Virus record (IMG/VR): IMGVR_UViG_2910013374_000001
Coordinates: 1-64,000 of that record
DNA: 64,000 bases
Direction: 5' to 3' (one strand)
Source of the DNA: a virus
Lineage: Duplodnaviria > Caudoviricetes
This document shows, in pieces, positions 29,361 through 50,692 of the stretch. The notes under the pieces were generated by a model that did not search any database, was not told where the DNA came from, and was given only the letters and a program-made list of their open reading frames with translations. Made by a program: the position numbers and the translations under genes. Numbering within the stretch: the first letter of the stretch is position 1; each line of letters starts with the position of its first letter.

Positions 29361-30953
29361 ATGCTTGACGTTCTTGTCGCCCATCCGATCGACGACCCTG
29401 AACTCGTCAGCTATGTGAGACCCGAGCTCCGGGCACTGTTTCCCGAGCTGGAGAAAGTTCGTGATTGCTACGAGCTGATGAGGAGCCCCCAGTGCAAAGG
29501 GCGCTACTTAACGCAAGAGCCAGGCGAGCCTGATGAGGCGTTCGAATCACGGCTGAGCCGCAGTACTTACACCCCGGTCTTTCGCGATGCGATCAAGGCC
29601 TTCGCTGGCCTGCTGGGCAACTACCAAGAGCACGAGCTACCCAAGACCCTCGAGGACAACCTGAGCAACGTGGATCTGATGGGATCCAGCCTGGCCAAGC
29701 TGCTCAACGACCTGGACCAGCTGGTCTTGCGTGATGGTGGCGCTGCTCTGCTGGTGGAGATGCCACCTGAAGACGAAGGCCTGGAGTCAGCGCTCGAGGA
29801 ATCAGAAGCGGGCAAGCGGCCGTACTTGGTGCCCGTTGAGCGAGCCAACATCATCAATTGGCGGACAACGATGCGAGCTGGCCGGGAGATGGTCGAGCAG
29901 TGCGTGATTCGCACGATCGTCGAGGAGCCCTCAGAAGACGGTCAGTTCGGCACCAAGCTCGAGCCGGTCTATTGCTACCTCTACCCAGGCGGATACACGA
30001 AGTTCAAGCTGGTTCGCGGAGCTGCTGACAGCAAGTGGACCCAAGTTGTGGTGGCCCAGGGCGAAACGAGCCTCCCTGTTGTGCCCTTGGTCTGGATGGG
30101 TGCAACCGGCAGCCGCTTCGGCATCGGTGACGTGCCCCTCTATGGCCTGGCCGATCTCTCGATCCAACACTTCCAGCTGCGCAGCGACCTGGCTGAGCTG
30201 ATCCATAAATTGTCGATGCCTGTTCCTGTGCGCAAGGGAGCACCGACTGATCAACACGGCAGGCCCGCACCTCTGACGATTGGACCCAACACCGCGATCG
30301 ATCTACCTGAGGAGGGCGACTTCTTCTTCGCTGAGCCGAGTGGATCTTCCCTGGCCCAGCACCAAGAGGAGATCAAGCACGTAGAGGCGCTGATGGATCG
30401 CTCGAGCCTTGCCTTCATGTATGGCAGCGAGCAGACCAAGACCGCGACAGAGGCCGTCCTGCAGGGCGCTCAGATTCAGGCCCAGGTGAAGACGCTGATC
30501 GAGAACAAGGAGAGCCTGTTCGACATGGTGCTCAAGCTGTGGGCGATCTATACCGGCGAGAAGGTGGCTGAGGAGTCAGGCATCGAGGTGAGCGACAACC
30601 TGATCCAACGCCCGCTCGAGGCGACGGAGGTTCAGAGCTACCTCAACCTGTTTGGTGAGAGCGCGATCAGTCATCAGACCCTGCTCGAGGAGCTGCAGCG
30701 TGGTCATGCGTTGAGCCATGACATCGACATCGAGGAGGAGATCGCTCGCATCGATGAGGAGAAGAAGAAGGCCCAAGAGGAGGCGATGGCCCAGATGGAG
30801 GCGATGGGCGGCCTAACCGGTGGCCCTGAGGATATGGCACCTGCGGCGGGCAACTTCAGCAAAGCGCCTGAGGCCAAGAAGAAGGACCCCAAGAAGGAGC
30901 AGGAGGTGGCAGCCGATAAGAAGGCCGCCAAGAAGCCAGCCAAGGAGAGCTGA
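29361..30953 (+). CDS. portal protein (DUF4055-type)
   Basis: YL.QEPGE...F..RL, NVDLMGSSL, IINWR, PL..LA.L.I.HFQ..SD, KTATE; 530 aa; late motif upstream. Confidence 0.85.
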   Translation: MLDVLVAHPIDDPELVSYVRPELRALFPELEKVRDCYELMRSPQCKGRYLTQEPGEPDEAFESRLSRSTYTPVFRDAIKAFAGLLGNYQEHELPKTLEDNLSNVDLMGSSLAKLLNDLDQLVLRDGGAALLVEMPPEDEGLESALEESEAGKRPYLVPVERANIINWRTTMRAGREMVEQCVIRTIVEEPSEDGQFGTKLEPVYCYLYPGGYTKFKLVRGAADSKWTQVVVAQGETSLPVVPLVWMGATGSRFGIGDVPLYGLADLSIQHFQLRSDLAELIHKLSMPVPVRKGAPTDQHGRPAPLTIGPNTAIDLPEEGDFFFAEPSGSSLAQHQEEIKHVEALMDRSSLAFMYGSEQTKTATEAVLQGAQIQAQVKTLIENKESLFDMVLKLWAIYTGEKVAEESGIEVSDNLIQRPLEATEVQSYLNLFGESAISHQTLLEELQRGHALSHDIDIEEEIARIDEEKKKAQEEAMAQMEAMGGLTGGPEDMAPAAGNFSKAPEAKKKDPKKEQEVAADKKAAKKPAKES

Positions 30954-34902: not shown

Positions 34903-37900
34903 TTGGTGCAAGTGGCAGGTACTGGAGCTGATCTTGAGAATTCCACCCTGGCCTGGGTCGACAAGCTCGACGGGCTAGGTGATGGCACCACGAAAGCTCA
35001 GAACGCAATCCTGGCCAACAGCGCCGAGCAGATGCTCGCTGAGCTGCGCAAGTCCTACACAAAACTCGCTGACGAGAAAGCCAAGGACCCCAACAGCAGG
35101 TCCCAGATCTACACCTCGCAGCAACTGGCCAACAGGATCGAGAGCACGATCGAACTGTTGCCGGCCAAGCAGCGCAAGGCACTTGAGGGCCTTTATGACG
35201 CCGAACTGAAGAAGGCCGACCGACTGGGTCGTGAGTCAGGCGTTGATCTCAACAACATCCTCAAAAACAGAGACAAGACCCTCAATCAGAACGCCAAGCC
35301 AAACGTCGATGCCGTCAACGCAGCCAACAGGCGGCTGAACCAGTTCTGGCAGAAGGAAAACTCGCAATTCACCGATCGGGTGAAGGCGATGACTCGCAAC
35401 GCCGCAGCCCAGGGCATGAGCTGGCGGCAGCTGAGCAAGAACATCCGCGAACTGCTGATCCTTGAGGAGAAGCAGGGCACACAGAGCGACAGGTCCAAGG
35501 CCGTCAACAAGCGATTCGGCATCCCAGGACGGGCCGAGATGATTGCCAGAACAGAGCTCTCCAACGTCTACATCGGCGGAAAGCTCGATTCATACAGAGA
35601 GATGGGATACGACCACGTCAGGTGGTCCGCTGCAGCCGAGCGCACCTGCGGCTTTTGCATGAGCCGTGACGGGCTGGTCTATCCAGCCGAGGAGATCGAG
35701 AGCGCAATCCCTGCGCACCCTCGCTGCCGCTGCGACCTCATCCCGGTCGATGTGCCCAAGGACATGAAGGGCAAGAAGATCACGCCCAAGCAGGCCGCTG
35801 AGGAGCTCGACGATGGCTACTGGTCCAATTCCAGGAAGCAGAAGCTCGACCAGTGGAAGAAGGAGCAGAACCTCAACAAGAGAGGCGAGCCCAAGTCGAT
35901 CCTCAAGAGCAACAGCGAACTTGACCAGGCTCTGCGCAACTACGCCCAGACGCCCACCAACACGCAGAACTATTTGCGCCCAGGCCAGCCGGCTTCCCCT
36001 CCCCTGTATGCGCCAAGCGGCAGCATCATTCCCGATGTCGAGGTGGCGGCCACAGCGGCCAAGCAAGCCGCAGCGGATGAGACCAATCGCGTCGAGAGAA
36101 AGCGGCTAGAGGCTGAGGCCCAGAAGCTCAGGGACACAGAGGTTCAAGAGCGCCCAAGCGAGGAATTCACCCACCAGCGATTCAGCGACGCGGACGGAGA
36201 GCCAGGGCCCAATACCCGTTGGACCAAGGAGCGGCAGAAGCTGCACGACAAGATCCTCAACGAATTCCTGAAGAACGGGGTGGTCAGCAAGAACCCCACC
36301 TTCACCATGTCTGGTGGTGGCCCTGCCTCAGGCAAGGGCTTCATGTTGAAGAAGACCGGCCTGGATCAACCCGGCAAGGTCGTGATCGACGCGGACGAGA
36401 TCAAGAAACTCATCCCTGAGTACGCCAAGGCACAGAAGACAGGCGGCAAGGCACAGCAGGCAGCAGCGGGTCTGGTGCACGAGGAATCGAGCTACCTGGC
36501 CAAGCGGATCATGAGCGAGGCCTCCAAGCGCAAGTTCGACGTCGTTCTCGATGGAACAGGGGACAGCGGCATCAAGTCCCTGTCTAAGAAGGTTCAGAAG
36601 ATGCGCGACCAGGGCTACAGGGTCGAGGCCAAGTACGTCAGCGCCGACACAAACACTGCAGCGCAACGCAACTGGGATCGTTTCCTCAAGACCGGACGCC
36701 TTCCACCCGAGTGGATGCTCCGCAACGTTCACGCCGATGTCTCCAAAACTCTCCCTGAAGCCATCAAGAAGGGGATCTTCGACAAGGTCGAGCTCTACGA
36801 CACCAACAAGTCGGGCGAACTGCGCAAGGTCATCACACAGGTGGGCGGCAAGAAGCCAACCATCAACGATCCGAAGCTCTGGGATGACTTCCTGAACAAG
36901 GCCAAGGCCCCTCAGGTCACTAAGGAACAAGGCGACGCAATGATCGCCAAGCGCAAGGCCGACATGCAAGCGGCCAAGGCACCAAAGAAGGCTCCTCAGG
37001 CAATCATCGATGCGGGCCTCGAGCAGGGCTGGAAGCTGATGGCCGAGCAGCCGGCACAGCAGGCCAAGCTCCTCGCCAAGGTCGAGGGCATTGCAGCCAA
37101 GGCCAAGCGCACCGAGGCGCTCAAGCCGATCAAGGCCAAGAAGTCAGCTGAGACCCAGGAACGCAAGAAGGACTACTACGACGAGGTCGTGTGGAGGGCT
37201 GAGCAGTTCGGGATCAGCATCAAAGCGGCCACAGGTGCTTACGCCAAGGCGATCAAAGAATCGGGCATGAAGCCCGGCGCTGACTACAACGAGGCCATCG
37301 ATAACGCGTTCATGAGCGCGATGAGGAAGGCCGGTGAGGCGGCCAGGAAGGACGCACTGAGGGGAATCAAGGCCAAGAACTCAGCCAAGGTCGCTAGCGC
37401 GAAGGAGGACTACCTCGACGAGATCGACTATCGGGTCAAGACCAACAAGATCACCCGCGCAGAAGCGATCGACGTCTACGCCAAGGCGGTCAAGAAGACC
37501 AAGTTCAAGAACGGACGCTCGGGCGAAGACCTCGAGGACGATTTCTTCTCAGCGATCAGCAAGGAAGCCAAAGAGCAATTCGCCAAGACCGGCATCGACA
37601 CCAAGAAGATGGTCGCGGAAGCCAGGGCGGAAGCACTCGCGAAGAAGCAGGCCAGGAATCTGGGCACGGTCGACACTGCGAAGACTGCAGGGCCAGCAGC
37701 AACCAAGGGCACCTTCAAGGGCAAGACCTCAGCGGATCGCGTCGCTGAGCAGAAGCTGCTGATGAAGGACAGCTTCGATGGTGGGCTCACACGTCAGGGC
37801 ATCAAGGACACCTTCAACACGTTGGCATCGGCCAGCGGTGCATCGGGCGCGAACTTCCGGAAGCTGATGGATTTCGCGGAGAGATACAACATCTCCACGG

Positions 37901-40155
37901 TCATGGGCTCCGGCGGACAAACAGCAGCTCAGATGCCGTATGCAACGCGGGGCAAGTGGGCCAAGCAGCTCGAGAGCTCGATCAAGTCCTCTCAGGCACG
38001 AGGCGACAGCTCGAATCGGTCATGGCAAGACACCGCCCTGCTCGAAATCAAGAACAGGCGCAAGGGCAGCAACGCCGGCACTCCACTACTCGACCGGGAC
38101 CTGGGCATCGACCCCACCTTCGGAGTCAACGGCACAACAGCAAAGGGCTGGGGATTCACCAAGGTCAAGACCCTGGCAACCGACAGACCAATCGATCGCG
38201 GCACCTTCGAAAAGATGCGCTCAAACATCGAGAAGGGCATCAGGGACGCAGCGGACTTCAACGCACCGGCAAACGTCAAGTCAGGGGTGGGCAACCGGAT
38301 GATCAAGGGCCCCAATGGCCAGGTCCTCCAGCGCGGTGATCACGACTGGCTGCTCACCCATGTCCACGAAATGGGCCACCAGATCCACTTCGCGGCAGGT
38401 TCTCCCAAGTACCGCGGCAAGGATCGTTACTCCCCGAGCCAATACGGCAGGACCAACAAGGAGGAGTGGTTCGCGGAAACTCTCGTCCAGTACACGATCG
38501 CCCCCAACGCACTGAAGACGGCCTCACCCGAGGCGTTCAAGTTCGTGGACAAGATCGTGAAGCGGGCGATGTCGGACACCCCAGGCCGGGTGAACCGCTG
38601 GGCAAACAACGGCACCGTCAAGCCGGACGACCTGTTCAACCCAGCCGAGGTGCTGGCCAAGCAGAAGGGCGCCACGGTGCCGCAACTGAAGGCGATGGCC
38701 AAGGAAGCCGGACTGAAGGGCTACTCGAAACTGACCAAGCCGCAGCTCGTCGAGGCCCTCTCAAAGACAAGATCTGCGGGTACGCCTGCCCCTGCAAAGA
38801 CACAGTCTTCCCCTACAGGCACACCTGCAAAGCCAAAGGCTGCAGCTAAGACCCCAGAGGTCAAGCCGGTCGACTACGGCAAGAAAACCGTCAAGCAACT
38901 GCAGGCTGAAGCCAAGGCCAATGGACTGAAGGGCTACTCAAAGCTGAAGAAGCCCGACCTCGTCAAGGTCCTGGAGGAGGCAACAGCTGCGCCTAAGGCT
39001 GCAGGCATCAAGACCAGCAAGGCCAAGGCCAAGAAGAACCTGACGCAGGCGGAGAAGGACTTCAAGCTCGTCAATGAGCAGCTCGGCCTGAGCAAGGAGC
39101 AGTGGAGCAGCAAGAGCGACGCTGCCAAGACGCTCACGCTGAAGACGGCCGCCAAGAAAGCGGCTGCGCCCAAGCTCACCGCTGCTGAGGTGAAAGCGAA
39201 GGAAGCCAAGGCGAAGTACGAGGCAGCCCTCGAGGCCAAGGCTCAGAAGAAGCTCGCGGCTGACATCGCCAAGCTCGACGCTGAGGTGGCCGCCAAGGCC
39301 GCCAAGGCTGCAGCGAAGAGCGCCAATAAGGCTGTCGAGGATCAGATCGCGGCGATCAATAAGGAGATCAAGGCGATCTCACAGAAGGCGCTCACGGGCC
39401 AGAAGGTGACCGCAGCAGAGCAGAAACGCGCAGCCGAACTGCAAAAGCAGAAGCGCGAGCTCATGCAGGAGGAGCCGGGCGACGTTGTCACGAAGATCGA
39501 TCGGACGACGACCGACGTCGAGCACATCTACCGGGCGAAAGACTTCAAGGCCTACGGCTACAACAGCCGGGCGGAGATGACCAGCGCCCTGCAGAAGGTG
39601 GCGGAGTACACCGACGAGGGCTACAAGCGATTCATGAATGCCCAATGGGCGCAGAAGCTGCAGGCAGGCGGCAAGTTGACCGCTTACGAGACAGCCAGGG
39701 CGAAGGAGGCGATCAAGAACAAGAACGCCCTCAAGCTGCAGAGGGACATGGAAGCAGCCGAAGAGCTCGAGAAGTTCATCGCCAAGGCGCCCAAGTACGA
39801 CGGATTGGTCATGCGCGGCTTGCACATGGCCGACGACGCGTCTGCTCTGCAGTTCATCAAGAACCTGGGCAAGGGCACGAAGACCAATTCGGTCGAGAGT
39901 TGGTCAGACGATTACGCCACCGCCGAGCAATTCTCAAATGGCCGCAAAGGCATGGTCGGGATTGTGCTCAGCGTGCAGAACAAGAGCGGCGTCCCGATTG
40001 CCGGCGCTTCCAACTTCTCCACGGAGAGCGAGGTTCTGGTGCCAAGTGGCCAGAGTTACCGGGTCAAGAACGTGACCAAGCGCATCGATGAGGATCTAGA
40101 GATCGGCGGCAATAAGCAGGTGATCTATGACGTCGACCTCGAGCTGATCGATTGA
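34903..40155 (+). CDS. MuF/SPP1 gp7-like minor head protein fused to Zeta-like kinase, zincin peptidase, two Rho-N/HeH motifs and an ADP-ribosyltransferase (start may be GTG 34912)
   Basis: IARTE...TCGFC...PAHPRCRC; GGPASGKG, IDADEIK, HEES, LDGT; HEMGH...SQYG.TN.EEWFAE; YT..GY, MRG, ESWS, ESEVL. Confidence 0.88.
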   Translation: MVQVAGTGADLENSTLAWVDKLDGLGDGTTKAQNAILANSAEQMLAELRKSYTKLADEKAKDPNSRSQIYTSQQLANRIESTIELLPAKQRKALEGLYDAELKKADRLGRESGVDLNNILKNRDKTLNQNAKPNVDAVNAANRRLNQFWQKENSQFTDRVKAMTRNAAAQGMSWRQLSKNIRELLILEEKQGTQSDRSKAVNKRFGIPGRAEMIARTELSNVYIGGKLDSYREMGYDHVRWSAAAERTCGFCMSRDGLVYPAEEIESAIPAHPRCRCDLIPVDVPKDMKGKKITPKQAAEELDDGYWSNSRKQKLDQWKKEQNLNKRGEPKSILKSNSELDQALRNYAQTPTNTQNYLRPGQPASPPLYAPSGSIIPDVEVAATAAKQAAADETNRVERKRLEAEAQKLRDTEVQERPSEEFTHQRFSDADGEPGPNTRWTKERQKLHDKILNEFLKNGVVSKNPTFTMSGGGPASGKGFMLKKTGLDQPGKVVIDADEIKKLIPEYAKAQKTGGKAQQAAAGLVHEESSYLAKRIMSEASKRKFDVVLDGTGDSGIKSLSKKVQKMRDQGYRVEAKYVSADTNTAAQRNWDRFLKTGRLPPEWMLRNVHADVSKTLPEAIKKGIFDKVELYDTNKSGELRKVITQVGGKKPTINDPKLWDDFLNKAKAPQVTKEQGDAMIAKRKADMQAAKAPKKAPQAIIDAGLEQGWKLMAEQPAQQAKLLAKVEGIAAKAKRTEALKPIKAKKSAETQERKKDYYDEVVWRAEQFGISIKAATGAYAKAIKESGMKPGADYNEAIDNAFMSAMRKAGEAARKDALRGIKAKNSAKVASAKEDYLDEIDYRVKTNKITRAEAIDVYAKAVKKTKFKNGRSGEDLEDDFFSAISKEAKEQFAKTGIDTKKMVAEARAEALAKKQARNLGTVDTAKTAGPAATKGTFKGKTSADRVAEQKLLMKDSFDGGLTRQGIKDTFNTLASASGASGANFRKLMDFAERYNISTVMGSGGQTAAQMPYATRGKWAKQLESSIKSSQARGDSSNRSWQDTALLEIKNRRKGSNAGTPLLDRDLGIDPTFGVNGTTAKGWGFTKVKTLATDRPIDRGTFEKMRSNIEKGIRDAADFNAPANVKSGVGNRMIKGPNGQVLQRGDHDWLLTHVHEMGHQIHFAAGSPKYRGKDRYSPSQYGRTNKEEWFAETLVQYTIAPNALKTASPEAFKFVDKIVKRAMSDTPGRVNRWANNGTVKPDDLFNPAEVLAKQKGATVPQLKAMAKEAGLKGYSKLTKPQLVEALSKTRSAGTPAPAKTQSSPTGTPAKPKAAAKTPEVKPVDYGKKTVKQLQAEAKANGLKGYSKLKKPDLVKVLEEATAAPKAAGIKTSKAKAKKNLTQAEKDFKLVNEQLGLSKEQWSSKSDAAKTLTLKTAAKKAAAPKLTAAEVKAKEAKAKYEAALEAKAQKKLAADIAKLDAEVAAKAAKAAAKSANKAVEDQIAAINKEIKAISQKALTGQKVTAAEQKRAAELQKQKRELMQEEPGDVVTKIDRTTTDVEHIYRAKDFKAYGYNSRAEMTSALQKVAEYTDEGYKRFMNAQWAQKLQAGGKLTAYETARAKEAIKNKNALKLQRDMEAAEELEKFIAKAPKYDGLVMRGLHMADDASALQFIKNLGKGTKTNSVESWSDDYATAEQFSNGRKGMVGIVLSVQNKSGVPIAGASNFSTESEVLVPSGQSYRVKNVTKRIDEDLEIGGNKQVIYDVDLELID

Positions 40156-40156
40156 G

Positions 40157-40345
40157 TTAAGTGAGGTCGATGAAGTCGAAGCCCATCTCTTCGGCCATCG
40201 CTTCCATGAATCCAGGATCGCCGGCCCAGAGCTCTTTGCCGTCTTTGCCGGTGACCGGACCTGCCTCCTCTCGAGTGACGTGCGGATGCTCGGTGAACCT
40301 GCCTTCAGCGCCGTCGTCCGTGGGTCGTTCCTTGGTCATGCTCAC
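40157..40345 (-). CDS. small acidic hypothetical protein
   Basis: convergent with the MuF gene; GGAAACCT motif upstream on the minus strand. Confidence 0.55.
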   Translation of the reverse strand: MSMTKERPTDDGAEGRFTEHPHVTREEAGPVTGKDGKELWAGDPGFMEAMAEEMGFDFIDLT

Positions 40346-40410: not shown

Positions 40411-40617
40411 ATGGAATCCAATTTCGACAAAGCTCAGAAATTGGCGATGCGCTGGCCAAAGGACAAAACGATCCCAGCCAAGCTCGTCAAGCTCTACAAA
40501 GCAGAGAACGGTGATCCGATGGTGGGTCTGTTTTTTGAGGCGTTGTATGCAGCGGCCAATGGTCCGGAAGATCTGGAATTGATTGGCAGGGCACGCCTCG
40601 AAGAAGACGAGGAATAG
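40411..40617 (+). CDS. small hypothetical protein (candidate immunity protein)
   Basis: CGGAACACT motif 32 nt upstream; lies after the MuF gene. Confidence 0.55.
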   Translation: MESNFDKAQKLAMRWPKDKTIPAKLVKLYKAENGDPMVGLFFEALYAAANGPEDLELIGRARLEEDEE

Positions 40618-40677
40618 GTGGACAGGGCCTGGCCGGAAGGTTAGACTTGACACGTCGTCCATCTGGAGACACATCCC

Positions 40678-40878
40678 ATGACGCTCAGCGCCGAAGAAAT
40701 GGAACGGATCGTGACCCAGGTGTCGCGAGGAGAAGAGCTTTCTGGGCGCGAGTCAGGGGAAGCTGCAGAGTTTCGCGCTGGTGTGACGCAAGAAGTCGAT
40801 CAAGCCCGCGAGATCGCTGAAGAGCTGGGCTTGGACTTCCAGGTGGAGATCCCGAACGAAACCCCCTTGATGTGGTGA
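40678..40878 (+). CDS. small acidic hypothetical protein (candidate immunity protein)
   Basis: 66 aa, Glu-rich. Confidence 0.55.
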   Translation: MTLSAEEMERIVTQVSRGEELSGRESGEAAEFRAGVTQEVDQAREIAEELGLDFQVEIPNETPLMW

Positions 40879-40935: not shown

Positions 40936-41121
40936 TCAGGAGGCTTTATAGCTGACACCACGGTAGGTGCAAACCTTGGGCTGGGCTCTGAGTGCCGCCG
41001 GAGACTGATGGGCGGTCGTATTGACACCGCGATAGGCGGTCTGACGCAGATGCGCCATCTGTGCATCGCTTAGGCGTTGCTGACGCTGTGCGAAGCGTTG
41101 TGCGTGTGCGAGAGGGGACAT
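40936..41121 (-). CDS. DUF4278-like small protein
   Basis: two YRGV motifs (TAYRGVNT, CTYRGVSY); directly downstream of a riboswitch; terminator at about 40882-40903. Confidence 0.8.
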   Translation of the reverse strand: MSPLAHAQRFAQRQQRLSDAQMAHLRQTAYRGVNTTAHQSPAALRAQPKVCTYRGVSYKAS

Positions 41122-41279: not shown

Positions 41280-41795
41280 ATGCTCAAGAAGACAGCCGCC
41301 GCCGCAATGGCCATCATCACCTTGGCTTTTGCCACGCCCGTCATGGCTTCTGATCCAGACAACGTCAAGGACTTGGCCGCCACGATCTCAGCTACAGGAA
41401 CGCAGTTCCTCAACGAGTGTCCGCCAGGGGCAAAGTTCCAGGGCGTCTACATGCCTGGTCGCCGTGTTCTGGCTGTCTGCGCTGGAGGGAAGGATCCTTC
41501 TGAGTTCAATGCTGAAGAGCAAGACACCCTGCGCCATGAGGGGATTCACCTCGCTCAGGACTGCATGGATCGCAGCTTCAACAGTGAACTGGAGACCACC
41601 CGCAACCTGATCTCTGTGATGGAGATGATGAAGCTCGCTTCCACCACCCTCAACTTCGCTGAGATCGAGCGTGCCTACAGGGAGATGGGCGCTGATGACC
41701 AGATGATCATGCTCGAGTTCGAAGCCTGGTCTGGAGCTGCTCTGCTCACGAATGCGGAGGTTTCTGACCTGATCCGCCGCGTCTGTCGCCTTTAA
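41280..41795 (+). CDS. secreted HExxH-motif protein
   Basis: signal peptide and TLRHEGIHLAQDC. Confidence 0.7.
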   Translation: MLKKTAAAAMAIITLAFATPVMASDPDNVKDLAATISATGTQFLNECPPGAKFQGVYMPGRRVLAVCAGGKDPSEFNAEEQDTLRHEGIHLAQDCMDRSFNSELETTRNLISVMEMMKLASTTLNFAEIERAYREMGADDQMIMLEFEAWSGAALLTNAEVSDLIRRVCRL

Positions 41796-47668: not shown

Positions 47669-49047
47669 GGATGAGTGATGTGAACTGCCGCAGGGTTCCG
47701 GAAGGCTCAGCCGTTCGCACTTGGTTCATGTCTCTGCTTGAAGCGCATCAGATCCTGTTCAAAGGCCAGTCGAATGTGCGCCTGATGGCGACAGAAGTCG
47801 GATGCACGCTTGAAGAGCTGCAGCAGTCGTTCCGCGCTTACGTGGCCATGAATCCGATCTCCGATGACGCATGGGAGAAAGATGTCGAGCTGTCCTGGCC
47901 CTGGGCTTGATTCTCAGCCGATTCTAAGTCGCACTGATTGACACCACGGCCAGCCAGGACCATGATGGAGGCATCGAGATCGCAGCAACCCGATGACCAC
48001 CACCACCCACAAGCTCACCAACGGCGAGGGCAACTGGCTCTTCCGCATCTCCGGCGACGTCGCCACCGTGATCCAGGTCTTGCCCTGGGGCGTCACCAAG
48101 ATCGAAGACAAGATCAGCACTGCCGCTCAGGCCCGCAAGTTCTGGGCTACCGCTAAGAAGTACGGCTGCACCGAGGGTTGGACCGAACTGATGAAGTTCC
48201 GCAAGCTCACCACCTGGGAGCAGGTCGACACCTACATCGCAGCCAACTACAACATGGCCGCCGACAACGATCCCGAGGCAGCCCTGGCACTCGAGGACGA
48301 GTTCCGTGGCTGCGGTTGTTTGAACGTGGCCGCATGAAATACATCTGGACTGGCCTGGGCATCGCGATCGGCGTTGCCCTTTGGCCAATCGTTCTACCTG
48401 TCTTCATTCTCACCCTGATCTTTGTTTGTATTTCTGACGCCCAGAAAAAGCCCAAGCCACCCACCAAGCCAACCCGTAAAGATCCATGACCCAACTCACT
48501 CCTCGCCCCACCTACACCGCCCCGGCTCGTCCAAAGCGTGTCTCTCTCAAGCCTTTCATCGTTCACTACACCACCCGAGCTGGCTTCCGCGCCTCGTGGA
48601 CCCTTTCGGCTCCGACGCAATGCGCAGCGCGTTTTGCCTTCCAGGAGTTGCTTCCCACAGGCCGGATCAACCTGATCTCTCTCCAGATGTAATGGTTCGA
48701 ATCACGACCGGTAGCCTGTGCCATTGACTGCACCTCGATGGCCCTTCCCTCCTTAGATCCTGGCCATCTCCTCCTCTGTTGTCTGGCTGTCGCTGTGAAG
48801 AGACGCGATCCCGTCCTTGTCAGCCAGATTGCCGAGAAAGCCGACAAGACTCTCCCCCAGTCTCAGCTCAAGCGAGCGTTCGGACGACTCAAGGGGTTTG
48901 GCATGTCAACCGACGACCTCCTCTGGCTGGCTTCCCTCGAGGAGTGAGCCCCAACCTTTGGTTCCGCCTGCGTTTCGTATAGGGGCGCAGATCTTGTCTT
49001 TGAGAGGACCTCGGCCGGAAACCTTGAGGCAGCTCTCGTCGTCACCT

Positions 49048-50572: not shown

Positions 50573-50692
50573 GCCCGGATTTCAAACCTTTGGTTCCCCG
50601 TGTGTTTTGTATAGGCCCGCAGATCTTGTCTTTGAGAGGACCTCGATCCGGTTCGGTTGATCCCGGAACACTCGGCCAGATTCCGAGACTTC

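Follow-up and report, generated by a model that had tools for sequence, protein, structure and literature searches.

The window analysed here, i.e. the whole stretch of 64,000 nucleotides at positions 1 to 64,000 of IMG/VR record IMGVR_UViG_2910013374_000001, contains one long uninterrupted open reading frame (ORF) on the forward strand (34903..40155, +) that encodes 1,750 amino acids from the TTG at 34903, or 1,747 amino acids from the GTG at 34912 that NCBI gives as start. The encoded protein joins an N-terminal MuF head anchor to a Zeta-fold kinase, an anthrax-lethal-factor-like zinc peptidase, two Rho_N/HeH motifs and an ADP-ribosyltransferase (ART), and it is followed by three small acidic ORFs (s1, s2 and s3) whose presence in related phages varies together with that of the three enzyme modules. 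The window is part of a 106,484-bp provirus (CheckV completeness 99%) integrated in the 2.73-Mb chromosome CP047959.1 of the marine cyanobacterium Synechococcus sp. SYN20, for which a 2025 preprint names 'a putative complete PSS2-like cyanosiphovirus prophage', and we regard the element as a P-SS2-like temperate siphovirus prophage. Its G+C content of 55-62% (~59% near the MuF gene) compared to the 53.4% reported for the SYN20 chromosome marks it as compositionally foreign to its host. The MuF gene belongs to the head module: the portal gene lies upstream (29361..30953, +; phrog_145, E-value 1.6e-92), and portal, ribonucleotide reductase, virion proteins and tape measure are all encoded on the same strand. 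The gap of ~4 kb between portal and MuF is occupied by small ORFs, likewise in P-SS2, and the order portal, small ORFs, MuF is found in P-SS2 and in six other loci. As a whole, the protein matches PHROG 16619, 'minor head protein', with an E-value of 1.6e-235.

Domain composition of the MuF protein

Starting from 5.8 billion proteins, we found about 25 long relatives that share the MuF anchor and the linker behind it, and scored them module by module. A preliminary description made from the sequence alone had called five domains; profile searches for each, and fold comparison for the two weak ones (zincin and ART), showed all five calls to be right and their coordinates to be correct within a few tens of bases. 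The module identities and the intact catalytic motifs described in the following are thus observed features of the protein. The MuF/SPP1-gp7-like anchor (34903..35802, +; Pfam core 35380-35742) is present in all of the ~25 long relatives and matches Phage_Mu_F PF04233 over residues 160-280 (34.8 bits; cut-off 29.6) as well as TIGR01641, SPP1 gp7 (47.9 bits; cut-off 39.65). It continues into a linker conserved throughout the family (35803..36135, +), which ends in ERKRLE as in the zincin-type backbone.

The first enzyme module, with boundaries set by comparison with P0004, P0008 and P-SS2, is a Zeta-fold P-loop kinase cassette of residues ~412-700 (36136..37002, +), of which residues 462-635 match Zeta_toxin PF06414 with an E-value of 1.6e-23 (83.6 bits; cut-off 22.3). 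The profile of the kinase family finds zeta toxin 1GVN with an E-value of 1.4e-6 and PezT with 2.2e-4; an assignment to AvrRxo1-type kinases was rejected, as the profile match is marginal (0.47, vs 1.4e-6 for zeta). The P-loop Lys is kept, and the VIDAD of the catalytic-Asp motif VVIDAD (36379-36408, +) aligns with VIDND of zeta, so that D498 corresponds to zeta D67 (PezT D66), the catalytic Asp whose role has been described (PMC3062530). Two motifs differ. The Walker A sequence GGGPASGKG (36313-36339, +) departs from the canonical GxxxxGK[ST] in that the Lys is present, but Gly takes the place of Ser/Thr. This deviation, already pointed out in the preliminary description, is real: about 30 domain copies of the cyanophage clade share it, and GKS or GKT is found in relatives further removed. 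In the position of the GTXR motif we find LDGTGDS (36547-36567, +), whose DGTGDS aligns with EGTGRT of zeta and replaces Arg120 with Asp; GTGD or GTGN predominates at this position in about 45 aligned copies. The GTXR motif (zeta G117-T121) binds UDP-N-acetylglucosamine (UDP-GlcNAc, UNAG) (PMC6362051), with Arg120 contacting the UDP phosphates (PMC6362051, PMC3062530). As GTGD stands in its place, the UDP-GlcNAc kinase activity proposed earlier is unlikely, and the substrate is probably something else.

These deviations could also be read as loss of function, i.e. one or more modules might be catalytically dead passengers (e.g. a GKG pseudo-kinase) kept for structural or DNA-ejection roles; the Walker A motif without Ser/Thr and the absent GTXR motif would fit this. 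However, the GKG, IDxD, HEESS, DGTG and Arg motifs are all near-invariant in about 30 copies at 64-82% overall identity, as one would see in an active site that selection maintains, and it is the more distant relatives that have GKS/GKT. P-loop kinases such as adenylate kinase likewise have GKG. We therefore regard dead modules as highly improbable; judged by its motifs, the kinase seems to have an active site kept by selection for another substrate, and not one in decay.

Many relatives carry the kinase in tandem within a single chain, with three copies in P0147/P0148 and two in P0150-P0157 (loci L006, L014, L016, L165 and L168), and all tandem copies have intact GGGPASGKG, IDxD, HEESS and DGTG motifs. 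Such tandems may serve to raise the dose of a cargo of which each virion contains a limited number of copies. L016 and L174 are the same 74,693-bp contig of a P-SS2-like phage with MuF, two Zeta copies and s3, which GTDB files under a metagenome-assembled genome of a 'Myxococcales bacterium', probably due to a binning error.

A Lys/Ala/Glu-rich region (37003..37719, +) connects kinase and zincin. It is common to the relatives P0004 (84%), P0005 and P0160 and has no Pfam match; for residues 686-939 the ESM Atlas gave no usable match and self-BLAST showed no internal repeat. The following module, residues ~940-1250 (37720..38652, +), is a zincin resembling anthrax lethal factor (LF; M34-type). 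Because both zincin and ART scored under their Pfam cut-offs, these two were tested further. An exhaustive HMMER scan found 142 zincin relatives at cluster level. In the family alignment of 25 sequences HExxH and E..AE are invariant; in the SYN20 protein they correspond to HEMGH (residues 1155-1159; 38365-38379, +) and to YGRTNKEEWFAE (residues 1181-1192; 38443-38478, +), which aligns with the LF block SYGRTNEAEFFAE. The family profile matches the catalytic domain of LF with an E-value of 1.8e-7, aligning HExxH and YGxTNxxEFFAE including the Tyr and the Glu that serves as third ligand. An AlphaFold2 model (predicted local distance difference test, pLDDT, 83; predicted template modelling score, pTM, 0.85) compared by VIA yields a Z score of 10.1 to LF residues 568-776 (175 residues, root-mean-square deviation 4.2) and 8.8 to the Pro-Pro endopeptidases PPEP-1 and PPEP-3. 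Foldseek alone is weak (E-value ~0.24), with LF or PPEP as every top match.

Behind the zincin follow two Rho_N/HeH motifs, the first at 38674..38766 (+; PF07498) and the second at 38887..38979 (+; PF07498 and SAP; phrog_2724 and phrog_2250), both above the cut-off (56.4 bits vs 24.9; E-value 2.8e-15). A stretch of 31 nt at 38750-38780, coding for ...VEALSKTRSAG at the end of the first copy, has two inverted copies at 50616-50646 and 48983-49013; both are reverse complements with 30/31 identity and lie within intergenic elements 10-12 kb downstream. They could be a recombination substrate or a remnant. An Ala/Lys-rich linker (38998..39492, +; 56% K+A+E+P, 88% identical in P0149) leads to the last module.

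This module, residues ~1531-1750 (39493..40152, +), is an ART of the R-S-ExE type with R1638 (within 39808-39822, +), ESWS containing S1666 (39895-39906, +) and E1708-S-E1710 (within 40024-40044, +). All 15 relatives have the ExE, and neither the R nor the first S varies among them. With the family profile we obtained a match to the arginine ADP-ribosyltransferase Vis (4XZJ) at an E-value of 8.8e-12. The AlphaFold2 model (pLDDT 91) gave 134 Foldseek matches at E-values ≤ 0.001, those listed being ARTs throughout; best among the matches listed is Vis (8.5e-10), followed by Certhrax, C3 and VIP2. Stand-alone short ART homologs were not found at E-values ≤ 0.001 among proteins of 121-387 amino acids, and a scan of IMG/VR with the single ART sequence returned no matches. 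In the locus of P0006 (L007:7527-8174) the ART is a separate ORF of 204 amino acids overlapping the end of the MuF gene, with s1 and s2 present; either the gene has been split or frameshifted here, or the ART has a gene truly of its own.

Exchangeable cargo and the downstream ORFs s1-s3

The long relatives carry either of two cargo sets. In the first, one to three Zeta kinases stand in tandem, to which ART or other domains may be added; the second is made up of zincin and Rho_N, again with ART as an optional addition. Zeta and zincin occur together only in the SYN20 protein among the about 25 relatives found. The novelty surmised in the preliminary description thus holds for the combination of Zeta, zincin and ART among these relatives, but not for the class as such, since polyvalent MuF proteins are known and P-SS2 already combines MuF, Zeta and ART. 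The nearest relatives differ from module to module: P0160 for MuF (86%), P0150 for Zeta (82%), P0004 for the region 701-939 together with the zincin (84-85%) and P0149 for the last linker and the ART (88-91%). Relative to P0004, the Zeta cassette, which is of P-SS2 type, is inserted at about residues 412-700, between ...ERKRLE... and IIDAGLE(Q/K)GW.... The SYN20 protein is therefore a mosaic, and so is the locus: MuF is of L008 type (L008 being the sister locus), Zeta of P-SS2 type, the part from residue 701 to s2 of L008/P0004 type, s3 again of P-SS2 type, and s4/s5 of L008 type. With the two types alternating along the locus, a hybrid formed by one block replacement was rejected. Zeta and s3 are two separate patches of P-SS2 type, an arrangement difficult to account for if the two were not required jointly. 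The contig encoding P0004, the closest zincin-type relative, has a Photo_RC (psbA-like) gene between portal and MuF (L005:2412-3443, -); P-SS2 itself has been reported without photosynthesis genes.

The first of the three ORFs downstream, s1 (40157..40339, -; 60 amino acids, isoelectric point (pI) 4.4), is convergent and abuts the MuF stop codon; we consider it the candidate partner of the ART. It is followed by s2 (40411..40617, +; 68 amino acids, pI 4.8), the candidate zincin partner, and s3 (40678..40878, +; 66 amino acids, pI 4.1), the candidate Zeta partner, which is 64% identical to its homolog gp033 of P-SS2 and is preceded by a sigma70-like site (40619-40647). An antitoxin of the epsilon/PezA type was not found next to the kinase, and s3 is unrelated to this type in sequence. 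We assigned the partners by co-variation in 18 loci with complete gene and downstream sequence; L172 was added (18-19 loci in all). Scans of metagenomes and genome collections with the MuF alignment found few close relatives on long contigs, and an IMG/VR scan with s3 yielded one new locus. In this sample s3 is present in 9/9 loci with Zeta vs 0/8 loci without it (Fisher p 4e-5, ignoring kinship), and s2 in six of the eight zincin loci vs none of the ten without zincin (p 1.5e-3). The s1 family (V1) was encountered exclusively next to C-termini with related ARTs (six loci, and in addition L007 with its separate ART ORF), while the gp031 family (V2) accompanies P-SS2-type C-termini in 5/5 cases; V1 and V2 never cross. 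The additional locus L172 (two Zeta copies and ART), close kin of L014, has s3 and s1 and lacks s2, as predicted. We also considered s1 as partner of the zincin, which is disfavoured by L014 and L172 (a single lineage), where s1 and ART are present and the zincin is not. On the anchor tree there are four joint changes of state of Zeta and s3; the SYN20 locus and L008 are sisters (support 100/100, 74% identity), with Zeta and s3 both present in SYN20 and both absent from L008. Taken together, this pattern suggests that each enzyme has a cognate inhibitor or immunity protein of its own.

The P-SS2-type C-terminus is itself a module of ~450 amino acids without Pfam match. In P-SS2 gp030 (L001:7995-12494) it comprises residues ~1050-1499, and it also forms the C-termini in L006, L011, L167 and L168, with a convergent ORF of the gp031 family alongside in all five. 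As the two are always paired, they probably constitute a further uncharacterised toxin-partner pair.

The small ORFs might instead be minor head or assembly proteins, whose match with the modules would be a linkage by-product of lineage and recombination blocks. The P-SS2 homologs have been annotated as structural from proteomics (PMC2784084), the independent contrasts number only 2-4, and s1 and s2 nearly always co-occur. Yet s3 and the Zeta cassette are both of P-SS2 type although they are 3.7 kb apart and separated by L008-type sequence; the sister locus L008 is without both; the convergent ORF switches family exactly with the C-terminal module; and MuF toxin/immunity pairs of the same layout have been proven experimentally (PMC11699363). 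This leads us to judge an origin of the pattern from linkage alone unlikely.

We thus favour, as the probable interpretation, a MuF-anchored polyvalent effector with exchangeable cargo and one small partner for each enzyme module. A number of observations weigh against it. The Pfam scores of two modules are under the cut-off: the SYN20 zincin reaches 16.5 bits of the 27.4 required for ATLF (its relatives P0005 and P0009 are just above with 27.6 and 27.8 bits), and the ART 18.5 bits of 22.3 (PF01129/PF03496). The Walker A motif without the usual Ser/Thr after the Lys makes kinase activity less than certain. The co-variation has only two well-supported independent contrasts (four on the best tree), and with 2-4 contrasts a sign test cannot reach significance. 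Moreover, s2 is missing from the zincin loci L170 and L009, s1 is missing from P-SS2 and L165 with their internal ART, the association of s1 with the ART is separable from that with the zincin through the L014/L172 lineage only, and s1-s3 match no Pfam or PHROG family.

Further downstream lie two ORFs outside this pattern. A basic ORF of 61 amino acids (40936-41121, -; pI 11.3; phrog_545), with a terminator-like hairpin nearby at 40903-40886, is conserved in L001, L006, L007, L008 and L009. The second, of 171 amino acids (41280-41795, +; phrog_16003), has a signal-peptide-like N-terminus and an HEGIH sequence (HExxH), is conserved in L008, L009 and as gp015 in P-SS2, and may, judging by these motifs, be a small secreted metallopeptidase-like protein.

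Probable packaging and possible delivery and functions

Evidence on the location of the protein comes from its P-SS2 ortholog gp030 (ORF030, YP_003084174, 1,499 amino acids), which occupies the same position behind the portal and has been annotated as capsid or minor head protein, but never dissected. In purified P-SS2 virions ORF030 was detected with an average of 96.5 peptides and listed as 'Major capsid protein', and ORFs 031, 032 and 033 with averages of 1.5, 1 and 2.5 peptides (PMC2784084). Since the ortholog is found in purified virions, packaging of the SYN20 protein by homology, and co-injection with the DNA, are reasonable to assume. By a crude measure, peptides per residue, ORF030 equals the P-SS2 portal ORF025 (0.064 each), which suggests that it is not a very low-copy component; this speaks against the low copy number that had been presumed for the protein. 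As ORF030 would be a MuF polyvalent effector rather than the capsid protein it was listed as in 2009, the true P-SS2-like major capsid protein should be among the unassigned virion proteins.

The idea of an injected multi-effector, as first put forward, is borne out with regard to the position in the head module downstream of the portal and to the presence of the ortholog in virions; injection and host targets are inferences. We envisage that the N-terminal ~410 residues (MuF and linker) tie the protein to the portal or head, and that the exchangeable cargo, consisting of Zeta-fold kinase, LF-like zinc peptidase, the two HeH motifs and the arginine-type R-S-ExE ART, would be packed in the capsid and exit with the DNA at infection. 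The HeH motifs could then tether the protein to nucleic acid, while kinase and ART might modify host molecules, like T4 Alt. Substrates of the zincin would be either host proteins or the polyprotein itself, which it would divide into modules. As cognate inhibitors, s1 (ART), s2 (zincin) and s3 (Zeta) most likely prevent the enzymes from acting in the cell that produces the phage or in the virion; they may also, or instead, protect lysogens from incoming kin phage.

With respect to the zincin, cleavage of host targets, as put forward in the preliminary description, is one of two published options for such peptidases; according to the second, they process the polyprotein of which they are part (Iyer 2017, PMC5512222). 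The zincin would in this case act on the Lys/Ala/Pro-rich linkers, either within the head or once injected, and free kinase and ART, leaving two host-acting modules. Iyer 2017 (PMC5512222) proposes this for metallopeptidase (MPTase) domains, citing P1 and N4, and in the SYN20 family the linkers are long and of low complexity and further modules always follow the zincin in the long proteins. However, many zincin relatives are proteins of ~700-750 amino acids with the zincin at the C-terminus (MuF confirmed in 2/2 checked), and where it is the sole cargo nothing else is there to be released. In addition, the zincin has its own co-varying partner s2, which fits a toxin in need of an inhibitor, and multi-module relatives of the Zeta type do without a zincin, so that processing is not required for multi-module proteins. 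Autoprocessing appears to us a serious but somewhat doubtful alternative to a host-directed peptidase.

A second question is for whom the inhibitors would be made. According to model b of Jamet 2017 (PMC5576092), the protein could be mainly a weapon of lysogens against competitors, with virions poisoning non-lysogens and s1-s3 protecting the lysogens. This is consistent with the element being a prophage in a complete chromosome and with MuF toxins being found almost only in temperate phages (PMC5576092); expression in the lysogen is possible, as none of s1-s3 is part of the late gene, s1 being encoded on the opposite strand and s3 having the sigma70-like site. On the other hand, the presence of gp031-033 in P-SS2 virions points to co-packaged inhibitors rather than, or besides, lysogen immunity (PMC2784084), and P-SS2, isolated as a lytic plaque former, has the same arrangement. 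A weapon directed mainly at competitors thus seems rather unlikely.

Extending our favoured interpretation of an effector with one partner per module, we tentatively propose, as a possibility we would not yet call probable, a multiplexed toxin-inhibitor system in which each exchangeable cassette has its own small acidic inhibitor and the GTGD/HEESS kinase forms, within the Zeta fold, a class with a new kind of substrate. Whenever a cassette moves, its inhibitor gene would have to move too, as is suggested by Zeta and s3 forming separate patches. The inhibitors could ride in the capsid bound to their modules, as gp031-033 of P-SS2 might, and/or be expressed from the prophage. If this holds true, marine Synechococcus lysogens would be immune to kin phages module by module, and the ocean's main phototrophs would have a form of kin discrimination. 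Both marine Synechococcus and Prochlorococcus rank among the major primary producers. P-SS2-like cyanophages carry a head anchor with enzymes as exchangeable cargo (kinase, protease, ADP-ribosyltransferase), P-SS2 ORF030 would itself be a multi-enzyme effector, and in SYN20 a prophage that appears complete is available in a cultured strain.

Comparison with known systems

At the level of single domains the likeness to known enzymes lies in fold and signature. The kinase has the fold of Zeta and PezT (1GVN, 2P5T) and shares their P-loop Lys and catalytic Asp, but differs from both in GKG instead of GKT, GTGD instead of GTXR and the clade-specific HEESS; no epsilon/PezA homolog accompanies it, and its candidate partner s3 belongs to no known family. 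Fold and HExxH...YGxTNxxE(F/W)FAE signature link the zincin to anthrax LF and the Pro-Pro endopeptidases (MEROPS M34), from which it differs in its ~13% identity and in being part of a phage head protein, whereas LF is a secreted toxin. The ART shares the R-S-ExE triad and fold with Vis, C3, VIP2 and Certhrax at about 15-18% identity to solved ARTs. A functional analog is T4 Alt, a head-packaged, injected ART (Iyer 2017, PMC5512222), which differs in being a free internal head protein, while the SYN20 ART is fused to the MuF anchor.

The closest described protein, P-SS2 gp030, is 56% identical over residues 7-685 (MuF, linker and Zeta) and 27% in the R-S-ExE ART. It contains one Rho_N motif instead of two and neither the zincin nor the 701-939 region, and its ART is internal and followed by the ~450-residue C-terminal module, which is paired with a different convergent ORF (gp031 family).

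Regarding the class, the SYN20 protein belongs to the already known polyvalent proteins and MuF polymorphic toxins. In the polyvalent proteins of phages and conjugative elements defined by Iyer 2017 (PMC5512222), which combine at least two unrelated effector-type domains in a single chain encoded among virion or transfer genes, a zincin-like MPTase is the commonest (hub) domain, proposed mainly, with P1 and N4 as precedents, as autoprocessing enzyme and possibly as effector; ARTs are also among the domains, and in phages MuF is found fused to zeta-like kinases. With three enzymatic and two nucleic-acid-binding modules in one chain encoded in the head module, the SYN20 protein conforms to this definition; Iyer 2017 mentions no cyanophage example and does not treat immunity proteins for this class, whereas the enzyme modules of the SYN20 protein have co-varying partner genes. 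MuF polymorphic toxins occur almost exclusively in temperate phages (Jamet 2017, PMC5576092), and Bxa of Bacteroides stercoris, a MuF-ART, has been shown experimentally to be neutralised by a small binding immunity protein, in addition to a hydrolase (PMC11699363). With these toxins (Jamet 2017, PMC5576092; Bxa/Bsi/BAH) the SYN20 protein shares the N-terminal MuF, the toxin cargo, the temperate phage and the small downstream ORF, and at the SYN20 locus we indeed find a prophage, variable cargo on a conserved MuF and a co-varying small ORF downstream. MuF toxins differ in having one toxin domain each, for which Bxa has two immunity proteins, compared to three enzymes and three candidate partners in SYN20; besides, the first SYN20 partner is convergent and not co-directional, and no ADP-ribosylhydrolase was seen. 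New in the SYN20 protein are its combination of three enzymes and a Zeta variant unlikely to use UNAG, but most of all the pattern of one partner per module: one small partner gene for each enzyme would extend the concept of MuF toxin-immunity pairs to polyvalent proteins.

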